Assembly: GCA_023246445.1 (NCBI GenBank)
Contig: JAHFIJ010000003.1
Span: 1-55,840 of the forward strand
Length of the DNA stretch: 55,840 nucleotides
Reading direction: 5' to 3'
From: Candidatus Woesearchaeota archaeon
Lineage (GTDB): Archaea; Nanobdellota; Nanobdellia; SCGC-AAA011-G17; JACQNH01
Every line of letters starts with the position of its first letter. The first letter of the stretch is position 1. Below are positions 3,060 to 53,137 of this stretch, piece after piece. The translations under genes were made by a program, and so were the position numbers. Below the pieces are notes generated by a model. That model did not search any database. It was not told the origin of the DNA and was given only the letters and a program-made list of their open reading frames with translations.

Positions 3060-5846
3060 TTATTCTACACTTGAGACTTCTTCAGTTGTTCCTTTAACAA
3101 CTACTTCTGTCTTTCCAGCTAATTTTGACTTGTATTGTTTAGCGTTTGCTAATACTACTGCAGCTCTCTTTGTGTCGTCTGCACCTGTACCGGCTACAAG
3201 TACTGCTACTTTATTTCCATTTTCAGCTAGCTTGATAATTCCTTCACCTGGCTTTAAGCTCCAACCAGAGCATGTTAAGCCAAATACGTCAGGAACTACT
3301 GAGTTAGCACATGGACCCCCAACAACAATTAAGTTATTGGCTTTTGCAACACCTGATACTTCACTAGCTGTCTTTGTCGAAGGAGTAATATCCTGTACTG
3401 TACAAGATGTTCCTGTTGATGTTGAAGAAACTGCAACAGAACCCATTGTAACATATACTTGAGCTCCTCTTTCAGCTAATGGGTACTCTACCAACAATGT
3501 CTCAGCTTCTGTTGTACCTGATGGCTCATACAAGTCGATTTTTGCACCATAATCAGTCATAGCTAAATGATGGTCTTCATCGTCATCTGGTTCATTAAGC
3601 ACAAGTCTTTGCGTAACTCTTTTAGCAAAATCTTGAATAATACCTGTAGCTGAAGTTCCATTATCTACATAATAGACATCGGCTTTTGGTATACCTAATT
3701 CATTATTGGTTCTGGTTACAATACTAAATACCAAGATTTCATCCCCACCATTATTTAGAGGGCCGTTCTCATCAAATTCAGAGTTTACTGTAACCAATGT
3801 AAGGTTATTAGTTCCTGTATGGTTACTGATTGTTAAACCCCCTTGGATTTGAGCATTTGTTCCTCTCGCTGCTCTTGGATCCACACCGTGCGATTGTGTG
3901 TGATTACCTAAGTCTAATACAGCCCCGCCTCTTACTGTTACTTTAACTTCTTGCAAATTAGAAGTAGCAAGAGGGAAACCCCCAGTTGCTTGGCTAGAAA
4001 ATTCTGTACCTGATGTAAGAATACTTACACTAGCAGAAGTACCAATTGTACCATCACCATTCTGGTCTACAGCTAAAGCATAGTTTGTAGAGGCATTGTT
4101 GTTGATATATGCCTGATAGGTATTCCCCCCAAATAATAGGTTTGCCTTACCAATTGTTACAGTTGAATTGCCTATGCCTGATGTTGAGTAGGTAAACTCT
4201 CTTGTTCCTGTTGCTAAGTCATCTACTGTTACCTGGTTATTTGATGTGTCAATAGATGTATAACGGACAACATGGGAAACAGCGGTTTCATCTGTTGCAT
4301 TTGCAGCATCTTGCTTAGATAATACAAAGTAGTCATTTGTTTCAATATTGAAGAAAAGATTACTTGCATTAACGCTAGCGCTTGTATTTATGTAACCTTC
4401 ACTAAACACAAGATCATCGTCATCGTCACCAAACTTGAAGATTCCACCTTGATTGGTTATATAAGGCACTCTGTATAGTTGACCTATTTGGTTTGTGAAT
4501 TCTAATGTATAGGCATCGTCACCCTTAGGATCTAATTTAATTACAGAAACACCTGTGTCATCCAGACCTTCATACCTTACGTCCCAGTTTTGACCTAGTA
4601 GTCCTTGAGGTTCATCTAAGAACTCACGAACACCATGTCCTGGCGGAACATAGATATTTGTTAAACCTGGCAAAGAGTCAGCAACAAGCCTGTATTTGAT
4701 ACTAGTTATTTCAGCTTCTGTTGAAGATAACTCAGTTAGATCAATTTCAACCCATGCATCTTCTAATGGTTCATTATCAATTTTAACTCTACTTTCGAAG
4801 TTAGAGTCTATATATTCCTTATCTTCTATTTCAAGCTTATTAGCTCCAATATAGAATTCTACAATGTCGCCGCCACCAGCTTCTCCAGCCTCATTTGAAA
4901 TTACTTCTGAAACACCTAAAAGTGTTCCGTCACTTAATGTAGCAACCTCTCCATCATCAAGTTCTTTGGTTTGTTCACCATTAACCTTGAAGACAACTGT
5001 TTCTGGTGATTGGTCTGTGATAACTACTACCTGGACATCATAGGTCTTTCCTTTTATTGTGTAGGATTTCTTTTCTCCTTCTTCCAAGACATCATAAACT
5101 GCTCCACCTAACAATACTAGTTTAACTTCGTTGTTAGTTGTATCAATCTTTGTGTCTACAAATACATAGGTTTGCCCTAAAATTACTAGGCTTTCATCAT
5201 CCATGTCTGCTAATTTAGAAGATGAGATTGTAGATTCTAGACCTTCTTCAAATTGTAATTCATATTCAAAGAATGCGTCTGTGGCATTTGTTCCACCAAC
5301 CTGGAAAACCAAAAAGTCTCCAACTTTCTCTACTGGCTCATCATTTTCAGTAAAGTTTACTAGTGGTGGATTTGAAATTGATAAAGTGGAGGAGTTAAAC
5401 CTTAAATATTGATTATATTCTGTTCTTCCTTCATTTGTTGTTACTGAGCCACCTCTTAAACCATCTAAATCAAATTCACTTAGTGTTTCTCTTACATCTC
5501 CAATACCCTCTTTTAATTCTAATAGGTCTGAATTTGTAGATATGGCTGCTGCATCGCCTACAACATTAACGGTTCCTTTACCACCGGCGGTACAAACCTT
5601 ACTTTCAAATTGCAGGTTTGCTGCGATGTCTAAAGCACCAAATGTGTCTGGCCCTTTTGCCTCATCACCTAAAACAAAAACATTTGATGGATCATATACT
5701 CCGCCTTTTACAAAAGGGGATGGATACTCTCCAAGATCTAATGCTAGTGCACTAGTCATTGTAGCTCCAAGCATAGTCACTGCTGTGCTTATTGCCAATA
5801 CTTTCTTCATAGCTTTTTTAGCTTTTAATACGAATGTTTCTTGCAT
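3060..5846 (-). CDS. S-layer protein (MJ0822-like N/C-terminal domains)
   Basis: Signal peptide KKVLAISTAVTMLGATMTSALA then DLGEYPSPFV; C-terminal LIVVGGPCANS...VLVAGTGADDT; acidic and rich in N-x-S/T; GGAGGTG RBS. Confidence 0.85.
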   Translation of the reverse strand: MQETFVLKAKKAMKKVLAISTAVTMLGATMTSALALDLGEYPSPFVKGGVYDPSNVFVLGDEAKGPDTFGALDIAANLQFESKVCTAGGKGTVNVVGDAAAISTNSDLLELKEGIGDVRETLSEFDLDGLRGGSVTTNEGRTEYNQYLRFNSSTLSISNPPLVNFTENDEPVEKVGDFLVFQVGGTNATDAFFEYELQFEEGLESTISSSKLADMDDESLVILGQTYVFVDTKIDTTNNEVKLVLLGGAVYDVLEEGEKKSYTIKGKTYDVQVVVITDQSPETVVFKVNGEQTKELDDGEVATLSDGTLLGVSEVISNEAGEAGGGDIVEFYIGANKLEIEDKEYIDSNFESRVKIDNEPLEDAWVEIDLTELSSTEAEITSIKYRLVADSLPGLTNIYVPPGHGVREFLDEPQGLLGQNWDVRYEGLDDTGVSVIKLDPKGDDAYTLEFTNQIGQLYRVPYITNQGGIFKFGDDDDDLVFSEGYINTSASVNASNLFFNIETNDYFVLSKQDAANATDETAVSHVVRYTSIDTSNNQVTVDDLATGTREFTYSTSGIGNSTVTIGKANLLFGGNTYQAYINNNASTNYALAVDQNGDGTIGTSASVSILTSGTEFSSQATGGFPLATSNLQEVKVTVRGGAVLDLGNHTQSHGVDPRAARGTNAQIQGGLTISNHTGTNNLTLVTVNSEFDENGPLNNGGDEILVFSIVTRTNNELGIPKADVYYVDNGTSATGIIQDFAKRVTQRLVLNEPDDDEDHHLAMTDYGAKIDLYEPSGTTEAETLLVEYPLAERGAQVYVTMGSVAVSSTSTGTSCTVQDITPSTKTASEVSGVAKANNLIVVGGPCANSVVPDVFGLTCSGWSLKPGEGIIKLAENGNKVAVLVAGTGADDTKRAAVVLANAKQYKSKLAGKTEVVVKGTTEEVSSVE

Positions 5847-14981: not shown

Positions 14982-15078
14982 AGATAAATCTTTATAAAGT
15001 AAATATATAAATATTACTGTTTGATTTTAGATATAGTATAACCCTCTGTTATATGAAATTTAATTTTCAAATCCTAGA

Positions 15079-15555
15079 ATGATAAGTAATATAAAGAACT
15101 CCGCCTTAAACAATAATATGAATGACGAACGCTTCATGAAATTAGCAATTGAACAAGCTAAAAACGCACCTTTTCCGTTTGGTTGTGTTTTAGTTAAAGA
15201 CAAGCAGATTATTTCTAGTGGAAAATCAGGTAAAACCAATAATTTTGACCCCACAGCTCATGCAGAAATTAATGCGATAAGAGATGCGTGTAAATCACTA
15301 CATTCCAAAGATTTAAATGGGGTTACTTTATATTCTACTTGTGAGCCTTGCCCTATGTGTTTTTCTGCTTCATGGTGGGCAAATATTAGTAGAATCGTCT
15401 TTGGAATTTCATTAAAAGAATCTTCAAAATTATTTGGTAAAGAAATGCTTGTTAGCACTAAATATCTTAATAGAAAAGGTGCTAATAAAATTGAAATAAA
15501 AGGCGGGGTTCTAAAAGAGGAAATCTTTAAACTATATGACAGATTTGAAAATTAA
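15079..15555 (+). CDS. Nucleoside deaminase (guanine deaminase/TadA-like); likely start at 15118
   Basis: PFGCV, DPTAHAE, CEPCPMC zinc motifs. Confidence 0.9.
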   Translation: MISNIKNSALNNNMNDERFMKLAIEQAKNAPFPFGCVLVKDKQIISSGKSGKTNNFDPTAHAEINAIRDACKSLHSKDLNGVTLYSTCEPCPMCFSASWWANISRIVFGISLKESSKLFGKEMLVSTKYLNRKGANKIEIKGGVLKEEIFKLYDRFEN

Positions 15556-15618
15556 ATTTCTCCGCTTTTTTTCTTCTGAAAAAAATACTCGACCCAATTG
15601 CATTCTCACTTCGTTCGG

Positions 15619-15712
15619 GTCGCTTAACACGTGATTTAGCGGTTCCGTCCTTGCAGTCCTTCAACCCAAATTTCCTTTATTGAAACTTCGTTAAATCCTA
15701 AAGTTAGGCGAC
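15619..15712 (+). mobile_element. Integron attC-like recombination site
   Basis: R'' GCTTAAC (15622-28), 5 nt, ATTTAGC ... GTTAAAT, 6 nt, R' GTTAGGC (15703-09); ends complementary (GTCGCTTAAC/GTTAGGCGAC). Confidence 0.7.
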
Positions 15713-15852
15713 ATATTACTCGGTGGGCTCGAAAACGATTACGAATATTTTTCTTTCAGAAAAATTATGGTGTCGGCTCGAAGTCGCTTACGTGACAGAT
15801 AGCTGAAAACCTGCGGATTTTTAGATTAGTAGACCGAAAAGCTTAAATACTA

Positions 15853-19324: not shown

Positions 19325-19639
19325 TTATTTCTTCTGATATCGATTATTATCCCGATTATAACATTTATCCATGACTTGCTTCCATGCTTCTTCAAGATTT
19401 ACCCCATTTGAGTTTGCAAGACAACATAATGTAAAAATCACGTCTGCAATTTCAGTTCCCAGTTCCTGCTCTTTTTCAGAACTTTTCTTCTTTTTTGGGC
19501 CATGTAAATGGTTAACTTCTCTCGCCAGTTCACCTATTTCTTCCATAAGTCTTGCTAAAATTTCATGAGGTTTCCAATATTGTGGCTCGAACTGGGAAGT
19601 CCATTGGTCTACTTCATCTTGCAAATTTTTTAGTGCCAT
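19325..19639 (-). CDS. MazG-like nucleotide pyrophosphohydrolase (YpjD-like)
   Basis: LMEEIGELARE...EIADV motif. Confidence 0.9.
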   Translation of the reverse strand: MALKNLQDEVDQWTSQFEPQYWKPHEILARLMEEIGELAREVNHLHGPKKKKSSEKEQELGTEIADVIFTLCCLANSNGVNLEEAWKQVMDKCYNRDNNRYQKK

Positions 19640-19659
19640 GGATAAATGAAGTTACAGGA

Positions 19660-19740
19660 TATATAAATGTAATTCCTTTTTCACTCTTAACCGATTGGAA
19701 TATAGCGATGTTTGTTGATATTTTTTAATTTGTAATTACT
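19660..19740. repeat. 80-bp direct repeat copy 2
   Basis: Matches 17959-18038; includes the last codons of the 19725..22940 gene and the MazG TATA box. Confidence 0.9.
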
Positions 19741-24306: not shown

Positions 24307-24873
24307 TTAATGACAACCACAAGAAGATTTACCACAAGAAGATTTTTTATTTGGATTAGAAATTTTAAAGCCTGAATGTTCTGGATTATCTATGAAATCA
24401 ACTTCTGAACCCCTTAGATTTTTCCATGAATCAGGATCAATAACAACCTTGGATTTATCTGCCAAAATTAAATGATCATCAGGCAATTGTTCTGAAAAAC
24501 CGAGAACATACTGAGCACCTGAACAACCACCTGGAACAACTTGAATTCTGAAAACGGCTTTTTGGTTTTTTTCTTTTTTAGATAATTCAAGAATTTTGTC
24601 TGATGCTGTTTTTGAGATTGTGACTTTGTTTGATATTATTTTAGGTTTTTGATTTAAAGCCAGAGTATTTATCTCCTTTAGCATTAATTCAAACTCTTTT
24701 TTATCCATTCCATGGCTTAAGGCACCTTGCTCCAGTGTTTCCATAGGATTAGCATGGCAACCAATACAGTGCAAACCGTGTGATAACATAACTTCTGTAG
24801 TGTCTGGATATTTTGATACTACCCCCCCAATTGCCATATCTTTTGTTACTAACTGATTATTTTTTGTTTTCAT
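24307..24873 (-). CDS. DUF1858 domain fused to HesB/IscA A-type Fe-S carrier
   Basis: GLHCIGC...ETLEQGALSHG, then GGCSG...GSEVDF...GFKISNPN...CG. Confidence 0.85.
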   Translation of the reverse strand: MKTKNNQLVTKDMAIGGVVSKYPDTTEVMLSHGLHCIGCHANPMETLEQGALSHGMDKKEFELMLKEINTLALNQKPKIISNKVTISKTASDKILELSKKEKNQKAVFRIQVVPGGCSGAQYVLGFSEQLPDDHLILADKSKVVIDPDSWKNLRGSEVDFIDNPEHSGFKISNPNKKSSCGKSSCGCH

Positions 24874-24938
24874 GTTGAATAGAAAAATAAAATTATTTAT
24901 ATAATTATCCTTTTTCGTTAACAGCGTTACCTTTTAAT

Positions 24939-25289
24939 TTATTCATTCTCGCATTTGTCGCTAAGATCTTTACAGGATCTAACAAAATTAGCCTTGAACC
25001 TTTTTTCTGCTTCGTCTAATTCATTTACTAAGATATTAAAACCACCAATACCCAAAAGAAAAATCTCTGAGAGTGGAGGTGGCTGACCGGCAAGAACATT
25101 TACCATAAAAAATGGCATACCTAACACAAAAGTTGGAATGTGAAATCTGTTATATAAACCAGTAAGAGTATTGTAAATATTGCTAAAGAATCCAGAATCA
25201 TATTTATAATTACTCTCCTCTAAAAAATGAGATTTTGAAGATAATTCATTTAAGTCTAATCTTTCTTCATTTAACGGATATTGAGCCAT
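24939..25289 (-). CDS. Hypothetical membrane protein
   Basis: 116-aa ORF with two hydrophobic stretches. Confidence 0.55.
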   Translation of the reverse strand: MAQYPLNEERLDLNELSSKSHFLEESNYKYDSGFFSNIYNTLTGLYNRFHIPTFVLGMPFFMVNVLAGQPPPLSEIFLLGIGGFNILVNELDEAEKRFKANFVRSCKDLSDKCENE

Positions 25290-25448
25290 AAATATTATTA
25301 AGAAATTCGATTTTTAAATTTAATGAATTAGTCATTGTGCACTAGTCCAATAGATATGGTGGTTTTTTATTCTTATTTTTTAATCCTTTAAAACAATTTA
25401 TGAAATGCAAAATATACCTAAACAGGTCTTTTCTCATCTAATTATTGA

Positions 25449-25560
25449 ATATAACATCGGAATTTAACGAAGTCGTGAGCGTAACGAGTATATATATGCG
25501 AAGCACGGGGGGGTTCGTCGTTCTATCGTTTGAGCGAAGCGATACATCAAGAACAGTATA
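25449..25560 (-). mobile_element. attC-like element (3' half) downstream of 25633..26163
   Basis: Minus strand GTATCGCTTCGCTC...CGATAGAACG...CTTCGTTAAAT-TCCGAT-GTTATAT; CTTCGTTAAAT identical to 15686-15696. Confidence 0.55.
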
Positions 25561-25632
25561 ACACAAATTCTATTAAAACGTTCCTAAATCAAATAGATTA
25601 GCCATAATAATAGAATAAAGAGGTCGGTGGGC

Positions 25633-26163
25633 TTACTTTATTTCGATAATTTTATCGGCGCTTCCAAATGAAATTTTGTATTTACTAGGAATGGCATTTT
25701 TTAAATCATAACTTTGCATACTCCTATTGATTAATTCATTATTGTAAGGATTTTTACTGTAAGGATTTAAGCAAGATTCCACAATTCCTTTTCTTTCATA
25801 AATTTTTGAATTCCAAGTAAAATCTCCACTCTTAAAATTAGGTTTTGGGAATCTGCAAGAACCAAAATCACAATGCATTGGCAAACCAATCATTTCACCA
25901 TTAACACAAGCCCATCCACCAAAACCATATAATTGTGTTGGAACTATTTCCCAACCAGTTGTTTCCTGTTTGAATATTTGAATTTCTTTATTACTGCATG
26001 TGCACTCTTCAAGACTAAAGTCAGACCAATGAATTTGTATTTTTTCACCTAGAGAATATACCTTTTTGTCAGTTGAAAGAGTTTGAATACCCGAAACTGA
26101 AAAGTAGATTAAACCAAATAGAATTACAAAAATGATTATAAGTATTGGGTATCGTTTTTTCAT
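25633..26163 (-). CDS. Secreted Cys-containing hypothetical protein (cassette-like)
   Basis: N-terminal TM then TDKKVYSLGEKI beta-rich domain. Confidence 0.75.
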   Translation of the reverse strand: MKKRYPILIIIFVILFGLIYFSVSGIQTLSTDKKVYSLGEKIQIHWSDFSLEECTCSNKEIQIFKQETTGWEIVPTQLYGFGGWACVNGEMIGLPMHCDFGSCRFPKPNFKSGDFTWNSKIYERKGIVESCLNPYSKNPYNNELINRSMQSYDLKNAIPSKYKISFGSADKIIEIK

Positions 26164-26267
26164 TATAATGTATTATATTATTGGGTATATTTAAATCCAC
26201 CGAAAACTTCAACGAAAGTTGAAACAATCTACGAGCCGGCCTCTTTCTATTTTTAGCCAATTTTTTT

Positions 26268-26332
26268 ATTGCGTATAGCATCGGATTCCCGTTATCCGCC
26301 CCAAGCCGAAGGCAAGGGACAGTATGACGCAT
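26268..26332 (-). mobile_element. Degenerate attC-like element between cassette-like genes
   Basis: GC-rich GCCTTCGGC hairpin then TCCGAT-GCTATAC-GCAAT, matching the TCCGAT-GTTATAT-TCAAT end at 25449. Confidence 0.45.
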
Positions 26333-26346
26333 GAGCCCAAAATACG

Positions 26347-26778
26347 TTAGAAGAATAAAAACTTTATAATTAATATTAGAATAATAAAACCAATAATATA
26401 AGGAATCATCTTAAAAAAATCTCTAAAATTTTCATCATCTTTTTTAGCATCAATCTCTGCTTGTTTTTTATATTCTTTAGATTGGAGATTAATTTTATTG
26501 TGTAAATCTTTTGAAGAGATTTTTTTATGATAGTAATCAAGAATTATTTTTTCATATTTATTTGGTATTTCATCATAATCAGAATTACACTTATCACATG
26601 TTTTGAAAACTCGTTCTGATGCCCAAAAATAATTTATTGGAATGAAATACAAAGTGTTATATCTTTTGCCAATAATAATTCTATGTTTAAGTTTATGTTT
26701 TTCACATGAACTTTCAAGCTCAGGAATATCAATATTTAATTCCGCTATTGGTTTTATTTTCCATCCAAATATAATCAT
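26347..26778 (-). CDS. Zinc-ribbon membrane protein (cassette-like)
   Basis: MIIFGW...TLYFIP...CDKC; C-terminal TM; flanked by 13-bp inverted repeats. Confidence 0.75.
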   Translation of the reverse strand: MIIFGWKIKPIAELNIDIPELESSCEKHKLKHRIIIGKRYNTLYFIPINYFWASERVFKTCDKCNSDYDEIPNKYEKIILDYYHKKISSKDLHNKINLQSKEYKKQAEIDAKKDDENFRDFFKMIPYIIGFIILILIIKFLFF

Positions 26779-27024
26779 AACTAGAATAGATTAATTGATT
26801 TATATAAAGTTTTAGTATTTTGGGCTCCGAGTAATATTGCAATTAACATCTGGCTTAAACAACCCCAATGGCTCGAATGGAATGAAGTGACCTCGAGAGT
26901 TTTTTACGAAGTAAAAAATTTCGTTGAACATAATAGACAGTATTCACAAGACATACGATTGTGCTCTTAAAGCATGGAATAAACTTAGGAAAAAGTTTCT
27001 TGAGCATTACAAGTCCATGAATAT

Positions 27025-27771
27025 TTAGTCATTTGGAACTCTTGGGGCCATGATAAAACTTAACTCTAATTTATCTTTTATTTTGTAGCTTAATTTTATT
27101 GGATAGTCTTGGCCAAATTCCAAAGATACAATCTCTGAAAATTTAGAAGCTTTCATGAATTTTTTTAAATATTCTACACCATATCTTGATTTTACACTAT
27201 CCCCTGTTAAATTAATAATCATGCTATCACTATTAGGGATCTCTACTTTTGCAGAATTAACTGATGATTCAGCCTCTAAGATTAATTTATCTTTATGGAC
27301 TATTAAAGCGACAGCATCTGAGATAATTGATATATCTTCTACTGCATCATTTAAGTTTAAAGCGGGCATTTCTATTTTTAATGGAAAATTTAAGTCAGGA
27401 ATCTTTTTTTCCTCTTCTTCTAATTCCAGCAAAGAGATATGAAATGTTCTTGTTGTGTCTCCTTTCAATTGTATTTTTAGACTGTTTTTTTCTTTATCTA
27501 ATTCTATTTTAATTGTATCTGAAGTTTTTGCCCTGTTTAAGACTGATTTTAGGCTATCCAGGGACAGAGATAACTCCAGATGCTCTGGAACTTCATATTC
27601 AACAAAGGCAGATGATAAAAGCTTAAAATTAACCAAAGAAATTTTAGCAGGATCTAAGGCAATTAATTCAATCTTATCGCTATCAAATTTGAATTTTACT
27701 TCATTAACTATATCTGAGATTATAGATACGGGCTCTTTTAAAAATCTTGGCTCTGATAGTAGTAGATTCAT
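27025..27771 (-). CDS. pcn: DNA polymerase sliding clamp PCNA
   Basis: ALDPAKISLV, SRYGVEYL, GQDYPI, FIMAPR; 248 aa. Confidence 0.95.
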   Translation of the reverse strand: MNLLLSEPRFLKEPVSIISDIVNEVKFKFDSDKIELIALDPAKISLVNFKLLSSAFVEYEVPEHLELSLSLDSLKSVLNRAKTSDTIKIELDKEKNSLKIQLKGDTTRTFHISLLELEEEEKKIPDLNFPLKIEMPALNLNDAVEDISIISDAVALIVHKDKLILEAESSVNSAKVEIPNSDSMIINLTGDSVKSRYGVEYLKKFMKASKFSEIVSLEFGQDYPIKLSYKIKDKLELSFIMAPRVPND

Positions 27772-28364: not shown

Positions 28365-29537
28365 ATGGTAAAACAGGAAAGTGTTTATTATATAACTTCT
28401 GAGAGCGTTACTGAAGGGCATCCGGATAAAATTTGCGACCAGATCAGTGATGCAATTTTAGACAATTTAATTTCACAAGACCCATATTCCAGAGTTGCAA
28501 TTGAGTGCTTAACAACTACCGGAACAGTTCATGTGGCTGGAGAAGTTACAACTAAAGGGTATGTGAATGTTCAGAAAATTGTTAGGGAAACATTAAGAGA
28601 GATAGGATATACAAATCCATTATTTGGAATTGATGCTGATGATGCAGGAGTCTGGGTTAGTATTCACGGACAAAGTCCGGATATTGCTCTTGGAGTTGAT
28701 GAAAATCCTGATGCAAATAAGGATCAGGGTGCTGGAGATCAGGGGATGATGTATGGCTTTGCCTGCAATGAAACTCCTGAATTAATGCCATTTCCTATTA
28801 TTACAGCACATAGATTAACCAGAAGAATGGCTGAAGTAAGAAAAAAAGGAATTATTAATGAATTAGGTCCTGATGGAAAGTCACAGGTTTCGGTCAGATA
28901 TAAAAATGGAAGGCCTGAGAAGATAATTGCGGTTGTAATCGCACAGCAACATACAAATAATATTGATGAAAAAGAATTAAGAGAAAAAATTATTAAAAAT
29001 GTAGTAGAGCCAATATGCAGGGATATGATCGATGATGAAACCAAGATTTACGTGAATGCTACAGGGAGATTTGTTATTGGTGGGCCTGAAGGAGACACAG
29101 GCGTAACAGGAAGAAAAATAATAGTTGATACTTATGGTGGTGTTGGAAGGCATGGTGGCGGCTGTTTTAGCGGGAAGGACCCAAGTAAGGTTGACAGATC
29201 AGGTGCATATATGTCAAGGCATATTGCAAAAAATATAGTTGCAGCCGGATTATCAGATAAATGTGAGGTGCAAGTAAGCTACTCTATTGGGATTGCTAAG
29301 CCTACTTCATTAAATATAGACACATTTGGAACTGGAAAGATTTCAGATGAAAAAATAAAGGAATTAGTGGAAAAACATTTTGATTTGAGACCAAAAGCAA
29401 TTATCACATATTTAAATTTAAGAAGACCAATATTCAAGAAAACTGCAGCTTACGGACATTTTGGCAGGAGTGAAGAAGAGTTTACATGGGAACATACTAA
29501 TAAAGCTGAGATTTTAAAAAAAGAATCCGGAATCTGA
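28365..29537 (+). CDS. metK: S-adenosylmethionine synthetase, bacterial/eukaryotic type
   Basis: [41 protein letters not shown]. Confidence 0.97.
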
Positions 29538-53052: not shown

Positions 53053-53137
53053 GGGACAGTAGCTCAGCCTGGGAGAGCATACGGCTGAAGTTTATATGGA
53101 CACCGTAGTATCGGGGGTTCAAATCCCCCCTGTCCCA
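53053..53137 (+). tRNA. tRNA-Phe(GAA) with 11-nt intron at 37/38 (53091-53101)
   Basis: GGGACAG/CTGTCCC acceptor, GCTC/GAGC D-stem, TACGG/CCGTA anticodon stem, GGGGG-TTCAAAT-CCCCC. Confidence 0.92.

Follow-up and report, generated by a model that had tools for sequence, protein, structure and literature searches.

Genes and sites of the insertion

The window, by which the whole analysed stretch of 55,840 nucleotides is meant, is contig C27 of an 883-kb archaeal genome (G000; 31% G+C) assembled from a metagenome. Next to its PCNA gene (27025-27771) it carries a 1.7-kb segment (25337-27024) in which two small genes, each with a promoter-like sequence of its own, lie between inverted repeats (IRs) and in front of hairpin sites that resemble the attC sites of integrons. 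The segment is missing, by synteny, from the congeneric genomes G001 and G002, where only about 45 nt separate the PCNA stop codon from a homologue of the window's gene 24939-25289 (G001:C60 and G002:C12), and it is for this reason treated as an insertion. Gene 24939-25289 (minus strand, 116 aa) is conserved and its homologues stand directly after PCNA in both congeners; it is therefore a resident gene and no cassette. The original prediction had placed a mini array of cassettes, each gene self-promoted and enclosed by its own IR, at 24939-26870. Two cassettes of that array are retained here, while gene 24939-25289, as a possible third, was ruled out by synteny and lies outside it. A candidate terminal mini-site, GGTAACGCTGTTAACG (about 24925-24910), was likewise rejected, being native intergenic sequence that is conserved and also present in G001.

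The end motif GATGYTAWNNNCAATA has only three exact matches in the window, all on the minus strand (26850-26835, 26282-26267 and 25458-25443); when up to two mismatches are allowed there are 21 matches, compared with 11.8 expected. The core G residues of the three sites are at 26847, 26279 and 25455, which places the sites 568 and 824 nt apart, and the middle end reads GCT instead of GTT. The ends, open reading frames (ORFs), promoters and motifs named in the original prediction were all recovered in the sequence, and its description of a small array of integron-type cassettes agrees with the presence of three ends on the same strand, belonging to a site family that forms arrays in relatives.

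Read along the minus strand, the first site (attC_a, 26835-26995) is degenerate. Its 5' module is truncated about 30 nt after the PCNA stop codon and the 3' arm alone is well kept (...GTTGTTTAAGCCAGATG|TTAATTGCAAT, G 26847), matching a hidden Markov model (HMM) of the right arm with an E-value of 8.8e-4 and showing 87% identity over 47 nt to C11:13046-13092 of the same genome. The 5' leader of cassette 1 (26815-26847, minus strand) consists of the R' core GTTAATTGCA (26847-26838), the sequence ATATTACTCGG (26837-26827), which pairs imperfectly with GCGTCATAC on the opposite side, and the arm GAGCCCAAAATAC (26827-26815). This arm is the exact reverse complement, over 13 bp, of the 3' outer-stem arm GTATTTTGGGCTC (26333-26345), which begins 2 nt past the stop codon of ORF1, so that the perfect 13-bp IR reported earlier around this gene is present as described. 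It encloses both ORF1 (26347-26778, minus strand) and the TATA-like box TTTATATA (26801-26808), which lies 30 nt upstream of the ORF1 ATG and would be its archaeal promoter. ORF1 encodes an orphan protein of 143 aa with a C-terminal hydrophobic segment; it has no Pfam match, and among 150 other genomes of the order the best matches, in two of them, reach E ~3e-4.

The second site (attC_b, 26265-26332) has a GC-rich 5' module that contains a small hairpin (26332-26296); the core behind it has collapsed, R'' being ATAAC (26295-26291), the stem 3-4 bp and R' GCTATACGC (G 26279). The leader of cassette 2 (26236-26279) begins with R' GCTATACGCAAT and continues into an imperfect outer-stem arm (26261-26236), the partner of which (25597-25627) was located by repeat search and folding. 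The two arms match over 20 nt at 75% in the repeat search and form about 24 bp with bulges in the DNA fold, which corresponds to the imperfect IR noted earlier around gene 25633-26163, in decayed form. Here too a TATA-like box (TTTAAATA, 26188-26195, 32 nt upstream of the ATG) lies inside the repeat, and a putative promoter of its own for each enclosed gene can be maintained for both cassettes. The 176-aa product of ORF2 (25633-26163, minus strand) contains many cysteines and, at its N-terminus, a signal or membrane segment; it has no Pfam match, and its only notable relative in the 150 genomes of the order (G010:C33:520-849, E 2.7e-7, 28% identity) is on a contig that also has a match to the hairpin model described below. 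The third site (attC_c, 25441-25589, G 25455) is full-length but degenerate, with a canonical right arm (CTTCGTTAAATTCCGATGTTATATTCAATAA; right-arm HMM E 1.1e-6) and a decayed left arm and inner hairpins; it scores 22.1 bits with covariance model R2 (E 0.0064 over 4 kb).

A direct repeat of 9 nt, AATGACTAA, stands on either side of the 1.7-kb insertion; one of its copies forms the end of the PCNA gene (27033-27025), and behind the other (25336-25328) the native intergenic sequence TTCATTAAATTT resumes. This second copy directly follows the end of an insertion sequence (IS), of which the last 90 nt or so remain (25337-25426, minus strand). The remnant encodes the end of a DDE (rve-type) transposase, ...VYFAFHKLF and a stop codon, and closes with the terminal repeat ...CTATTGGACTAGTGCAC; it is 85% identical to six copies at contig ends in G002, where the frame continues with YNHERPHMSLDGLTPAEVYFAFHKLF before its stop. 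The pattern of the IS end occurs ten times in G002, three times in G000 and once in G001. The remnant cuts the leader of a third cassette, leaving a stub (TTATATTCAATAATTAGATGAGAAAAGACC..., 25427-25454). No rve gene was found in G000, nor was an inverted IS end found there, within three mismatches, for the left border of the insertion; this border, ATATTCATGGACTTGT, resembles the right end of the IS in direct orientation only (13 of 16 positions, by eye). Hairpin ends of the IS200/IS605 type were also considered and set aside, since the sole trace of a Y1 transposase in G000 is a fragment with an internal stop codon (C44:25325-25594).

Assembled contigs of three public DNA runs were compared with the window. 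They break at the repeated attC_c arm and show extra depth over 25353-25586, and no circle junction, deletion or inversion was seen in them; a joint from 24652 to 26800 was disregarded because its shorter side measures only 21 letters and 2349 unrelated letters stand between. The window's own copy of the array appears to be no longer mobile. The window also has a MetK-like ORF (28365-29537). In the congener G001 an ORF of 435 aa (locus L093, G001:C80, 73-1380) contains a YVDD motif like that of reverse transcriptases from group II introns or retrons, and an IS-end remnant is nearby. In an Rfam scan of the window a single tRNA (53053-53137) alone reached the gathering score.

The hairpin site family and its outer stem, probably split by insertion

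The G000 genome contains some 20 copies of the 3' arm, with the consensus AAACTTCGTTAAATTCCGATGTTAnnnnCAATAA. Upstream partners of the form yTAAC-A-GGAATTTAACGG pair with it except for two 2-nt bulges, and the pairing is kept where the arm sequence varies. RNAalifold returned no pairs from a first MAFFT alignment, in which the left arms were out of register, and this approach was replaced by a hand-given structure: a covariance model was built from ten copies with the stem supplied by hand. It identified 20 places in G000 at E <= 1. After realignment with Infernal, in 16 distinct copies 81% of the cells assigned to pairs were paired, compared with 29-43% when the partners were slid by 1-3 columns. 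The main stem is 84% paired with compensatory changes in all 11 of its pairs, the AACA.../...TGTT stem is 91% paired, and the covariation score was reached by none of 500 shuffles. In the interior a conserved hairpin with the loop TTGCAG is followed by CCCAAATTT and by another hairpin. On the 3' arm the R and L stems are set apart by a constant bulge of 2 nt (GA or AA), and a further bulge is found near ACTTCG. In the sites of relatives the left flanks are RYYYAAC-like and the right flanks GTTRRRY-like. An element of about 150 nt resembling a miniature inverted-repeat transposable element (MITE), with the terminal repeats CAGGCTGT.../...ACAGCCTG, was observed in the L'' arm of some attC sites (G000 C23:17600-17660 and 19560-19675, C28:15745-15880); it sits right after AACAG(CG) and hides these sites from the model. 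The attC-targeting IS1111 elements and group IIC introns of bacteria are comparable.

The rebuilt model matched 16 of the 61 genomes of the order, G000 included, and in relatives the sites form arrays in one orientation with up to ten members spaced by 0.5-3.5 kb. The longest are on G054:C8 (ten sites), G054:C22 (eight), G052:C12 (seven) and G011:C27 (five), with shorter ones in G044, G009 and G002. Matches on the same strand up to E 0.19 were taken as sites, and three weak matches on the opposite strand (L089 1540-1650, L092 4485-4588 and L085 4964-5098) were left out. Thirty-four cassettes from seven genomes were obtained in this way, 17 from G054, six from G052, four from G011, two each from G044, G009 and G000, and one from G002.

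The first 10 nt of each cassette (GTT and the following seven) were compared with the reverse complement of the R'' box of its own downstream site. They agreed at 7.9 of 10 positions on average, and at eight or more in 25 of the 34 cassettes, while the mean was 5.5 for combinations of non-cognate partners and 5.3 when both flanks of a single site were compared. Judged from these sequences, such cognate pairing of the R boxes is the trace that a crossover at G|TT, as known from integrons, would leave. Cassettes with a common leader differ in the sequence just upstream of GTT.

For the outer stem the R box was excluded, and each leader was compared with the stretch of 100 nt that precedes R'' of the same cassette. 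The local IR score had a median of 13 for cognate and 7 for non-cognate pairs (99th percentile of the latter, 13), and the observed mean was reached by none of 20000 permutations, whether or not the cassettes of the window were included. A perfect, cassette-specific IR of 11-17 nt was present in 27 of the 34 cassettes; IRs of at least 11 nt occurred in 1.7% of 1122 non-cognate pairs, in all cases between cassettes sharing a frame. In 20 of the 27 cassettes having an arm of at least 11 nt the leader arm starts exactly 11 nt after the G, and its partner lies 27-93 nt upstream of R''. Duplex energies gave a consistent picture (cognate median -17.4 kcal/mol, non-cognate mean -9.8, standard deviation 2.8), and for 23 of 36 leaders the best partner was the own trailer. 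Examination of the cassettes of relatives, as proposed with the original prediction, has thus revealed gene-flanking IRs to be general and non-random. The prediction would have been refuted by an equal frequency of such repeats around random genes. Among 698 G000 ORFs (at least 110 aa) a perfect flanking IR of at least 13 nt was found at nine, and these cluster at model matches; the eight strongest flanking duplexes belong to ORF1, to six genes abutting a model match (two on C11 and one each on C28, C7, C23 and C30) and to one other gene. Flanking IRs are therefore rare around ordinary genes, and the prediction withstands this test.

The 3' part of each cassette was then joined to its own leader, as it would be on an excised circle, and folded. 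The predicted structures begin with a perfect outer stem and continue through the GC-rich 5' module, in which small hairpins form, to the R box (9-10 bp), a bulge of 2 nt, the L stem and the inner hairpins. Some frames are paired over 60-90 nt, past a CCCACCC motif on both arms, as far as a GC-rich clamp. In the reconstructed circle the arms enclose the attC and not the gene. This closure and the fixed register of the arms to the G indicate that the IR is the base of the attC hairpin, split by insertion; that it brackets the gene is due solely to the position of the crossover, some 28 nt into the 3' arm. In many cassettes (e.g. in L084, L085, L089 and G000 C11:3223-3865) the motif CCCACCC(A), often followed by GACGGCGCGC, is found on both arms of the basal stem, immediately beyond the perfect arm. 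Its two copies are identical and non-complementary, which suggests a putative protein-binding site.

Cassette 1 of the window matches this general architecture, with a 13-nt arm and a 36-nt module, and cassette 2 does so in decayed form. The leader/trailer duplex of cassette 1 (-22.1 kcal/mol) is reached by 0.16% of 1260 non-cognate pairs. That of cassette 2 (-14.5 kcal/mol) is reached by 6.6%, and its own trailer ranks first of 36.

It is likely, then, that 25337-27024 is a decayed fragment of an integron-type array and that the IRs flanking its genes are the basal stem of their own attC, split at G|TT. The fragment, now lodged between the PCNA gene and the conserved small gene, would consist of two cassettes, each made of a promoter and an orphan gene for a membrane or secreted protein followed by an attC-like hairpin site. 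In this lineage the attC hairpin would be much longer than the classical R''-L''...L'-R' unit: past the R box (9-10 bp) and a gap of 1-2 nt its 3' arm would continue for 12-17 perfectly paired nt, and often for more, the partner of this arm lying upstream of the GC-rich module of 27-93 nt that precedes R''. As G|TT, the point of strand exchange, is situated some 28 nt within the 3' arm, insertion would open the hairpin. The end of the 3' arm, i.e. the rest of R' and the outer arm, would become the first 28 nt or so of the integrated cassette while the complementary arm remained behind the gene, so that the gene would come to be enclosed by its own IR. On the excised circle the arms would reunite and close a three-way junction around the attC. 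The outer stem probably acts at the DNA level, and it could stabilise the folded site on free cassettes or join the two flanking sites of one cassette in single-stranded DNA.

Several observations weigh against this interpretation. Two of the three sites of the window's array score at the level of noise with the covariance model, attC_a with 12.8 bits (E 0.42) and attC_b, for which 67 interior positions are missing in the model alignment, with 13.0 bits (E 0.39); attC_c is the only one that the model recognises, and its score is marginal. The outer arm of cassette 1 starts at +20 rather than +11, the intervening stretch being imperfectly paired, and the R boxes of the window's two cassettes agree with their own R'', set by hand, at 5 and 3 of 10 positions. 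At the family level, the homology between C27:15603-15696 and C11:14894-14803 (95% identical) ends 7 nt before G|TT, the 34 cassettes are not independent, as several share a frame and half come from G054, and the alignment used for covariation was fitted to the model. Finally, the recombinases at the array heads, described in the next section, do not have the IntI-specific domain that is thought to be necessary for attC recombination.

Frames, recombinases and alternative explanations

One and the same frame may surround interiors without DNA similarity, as in L084_2, L084_7, L085_0 and a cassette of G000 C11, and again in L085_2 and L087_0. Such a frame consists of a leader of about 65-93 nt and of 130-240 nt of trailer and attC, with 76-95% identity. 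Among 64 cassette ORFs there were four blastp matches (E <= 1e-3), none of them between cassettes sharing a frame. In 22 of 36 cassettes the longest ORF is preceded, at a distance of 21-40 nt, by a TATA-like box, compared with 3.4% of windows placed within ORFs. The longest ORF is forward in 18 cassettes and reverse in the other 18, mostly with a TATA-like box of its own, although the ORF calling was crude. A combined reading is conceivable, if rather unlikely, in which reusable frames of some 300-400 nt, made of the attC core, the 5' module and the basal stem and recombined by XerA-type enzymes without the IntI domain, would accept promoter-bearing genes in either orientation, with the basal stem as the seam.

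In the original prediction it was proposed that empty hairpin cassettes came first and that promoter-bearing genes were later inserted into their loop; on this view the IR would be the seam of cassette creation. It can coexist with the structural explanation given above and is, in our estimation, unlikely. The recurrence of a frame around dissimilar interiors, the lack of blastp matches between frame-sharing cassettes and the presence of promoter-bearing genes in both orientations all speak for it, as does the perfection of the arms within an otherwise imperfect hairpin. Against it, bacterial chromosomal integrons as a rule also have uniform attC sites around unrelated genes, and such uniformity alone is no proof that genes were inserted into empty frames; a gene in the loop and an attC in the loop are the same topology on a circle, and the arms stand in a fixed register and close around the attC. 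What is upheld of the proposal is the same frame around unrelated genes in either orientation.

Empty versions of the hairpin were sought among the 36 cassettes, and no intact frame with the outer stem closed by a short loop was found; the shortest cassette measures 499 nt. Two near-empty units speak for such a history. The first is on G000 C30 (26726-26972), where two model matches stand head to tail about 120 nt apart with no cargo and ATATTACTCGG follows the second. The other is the stretch after position 15703 of the window, the core G of a well-kept plus-strand site of the same family and leader subfamily (15613-15723, G 15703; 87 bits with model R1, 95% identity over 94 nt to C11:14803-14894). 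In the original prediction 15713-15790 was taken for an empty cassette, and this is not convincing: the stretch contains direct and not inverted repeats (GGCTCGAA..CG.TTACG twice), and no second model site was found in it.

The sequence ATATTACTCGG, which had been noted at 15713 and 26837 as following a GTT end, is indeed present at both, with further copies at C28:14847 and C30:26730, i.e. four in the 883-kb genome compared with 0.6 expected. Every copy starts exactly 10 nt after the G of an attC and each is followed by a different arm. It is a conserved piece of the leader of one site subfamily and provides no evidence for an empty cassette. The surrounding part of the window (15029-15832), with a dCMP-deaminase gene (15079-15555) and the attC behind it, has no DNA match in either congener, and in G001 the flanks of the locus are on different contigs. 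The dCMP-deaminase gene may itself be cassette cargo.

No tyrosine recombinase of the IntI type was found in the window. Three array heads are not truncated by the end of a contig, and each has a tyrosine recombinase gene (G000 C11:5317-6120, G052:C12:106117-106965 and G009:C3:21489-22368) in divergent orientation, 0.2-1.1 kb from the first cassette or site; the sites near the first of these are at 3865-3967 and 3099-3223. Five recombinases were compared with profile models and all were best on the archaeal XerA model NF040815 (cut-off 220), which three of them exceeded with 226-231 bits (G000 C11:5317 with 231, G052 C12 with 226, and one on G000 C4), while G009 C3 (205.6 bits) and G000 C11:12033 (168.7 bits) remained below. 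With the integron-integrase model TIGR02249 (cut-off 265) the array-head enzymes scored 189-205 bits and all five 124-205. None of the five, which are 270-292 aa long, has residues aligned to positions ~181-235 of this model, the IntI-specific domain. The array-head recombinases keep the catalytic R, K, HxxR, H and Y. A third Xer-like ORF (G000 C11:12033-12860), beside two attC-type sites, has lost HxxR and LLGH (RSSYASHL, LLGT) and is probably inactive.

In the explanation preferred here, XerA-type recombinases at the array heads would catalyse the crossover. An alternative is a system that is not strictly an integron, in which such enzymes recombine the sites in double-stranded form, as dif-like sites, and the IRs are incidental. 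The placement of all five on NF040815, three of them above the cut-off, their scores below the cut-off of the integron-integrase model and the gap at the IntI-specific positions favour this alternative. The covariation of a hairpin of 100-130 nt with conserved bulges, together with the cognate pairing across cassettes, points instead to a folded single-strand substrate, and the array-adjacent recombinases are not clearly separate from the others (five compared, 37-45% identity). Double-stranded exchange with incidental repeats is held to be quite improbable.

A role of the repeats at the RNA level, as terminator or insulator hairpins around transcription units, is very improbable. Many arms do hold runs of T or A (e.g. 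TAATTTTTTGAGC and TTGAGAAAAAAGCCCC), which could stop archaeal transcription once it has crossed the site. However, a T run is not regularly found on the sense strand 3' of the gene, the outer arms of the window have no long T run, and the promoter lies inside the repeat, so that the leader arm is outside the gene's own transcript.

That the repeats arose by chance, in a genome of 31% G+C where a repeat search returned 125 inverted pairs in 2.3 kb, or are the terminal repeats of a transposon or MITE, is hardly credible, as the arms are G+C-rich, specific to each cassette unless a whole frame is shared, set in a fixed register to G|TT and without a shared terminal sequence or target duplication, the nine genes of 698 with a perfect flanking IR of at least 13 nt cluster at model matches, and the permutation, register, duplex-energy and ordinary-gene comparisons all contradict it.

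Comparison with known systems

A classical attC is an imperfect hairpin of the form R''-L''-variable loop-L'-R' with AAC/GTT boxes and unpaired bulges, in which the crossover takes place at G|TT within GTTRRRY; 6 nt follow the crossover, the R box has 7 bp and each cassette starts with bases of its own attC. The sites described here share the imperfect hairpin, the AAC/GTT boxes, the bulges and the position of the crossover. They differ in an R box of 9-10 bp that is continued by a perfect stem of 12-17 bp, often more, in the structured module of 27-93 nt on the 5' side of R'', and in their interior hairpins, including the TTGCAG loop and the conserved piece that follows it. In addition, the bulged bases are on the L'-R' arm as the sites are oriented here, whereas the extrahelical bases of classical sites are believed to be on the arm opposite to it.

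The chromosomal 'super-integron' of the Vibrio type has near-identical attC sites (VCR) around unrelated genes, most of its cassettes being in one orientation. One type of site or frame is similarly reused here around many unrelated, mostly orphan genes, but the reused frame reaches 65-93 nt into the start of the next cassette and pairs with the trailer, and the genes occur in either orientation with promoters of their own. In the pdif (Xer) modules of Acinetobacter plasmids, genes are bracketed by inverted XerC/XerD sites, which are conserved 28-bp dif-like sequences. Common to both systems is the link of Xer-family recombinases to small gene modules flanked by inverted sequences; the arms observed here, in contrast, are specific to each module and flank a large folded site, and the modules form arrays in one orientation.

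Archaeal integrons and clusters of attC sites without an integrase (CALINs) have been reported (Ghaly et al. 2022, Sci Adv, PMC9668308). As far as described in the main text of that work, they resemble the present arrays in having attC-type folded sites with AAC...GTT cores in the same orientation around mostly unknown genes, in their patchy distribution among archaeal metagenome genomes, including DPANN or Nanoarchaeota, and in that most arrays have no recognisable IntI. They differ in that the archaeal IntIs are stated there to carry the IntI-specific additional domain, while the array heads studied here have XerA-type enzymes that lack this domain. The terms stem, hairpin and inverted repeat are absent from that main text, which describes neither an outer stem nor a 5' module nor a conserved leader; its data supplements may list some of the sites. 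Searches of open-access full text turned up neither an account of an extended attC stem nor one of XerA-linked arrays.

Standard integron finders would call the arrays of this lineage integrase-less clusters and would draw the borders of the sites too narrowly, by about 30 nt at the 3' end and by 40-110 nt at the 5' end. How a gene acquires an attC and so becomes a cassette is an old question of integron biology. The site described here would be a much larger hairpin than the textbook attC, with the crossover well inside it, and each integrated cassette would carry readable, cassette-specific arms that mark the boundary between frame and cargo. XerA-type rather than IntI-type genes at the array heads would bear on the origin of integron integrases from Xer recombinases. 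Were the frames indeed reusable and filled with unrelated genes, the different fillings and the near-empty frames would be snapshots of the creation of cassettes, and the system would point to an Xer-based forerunner or parallel of the integron.

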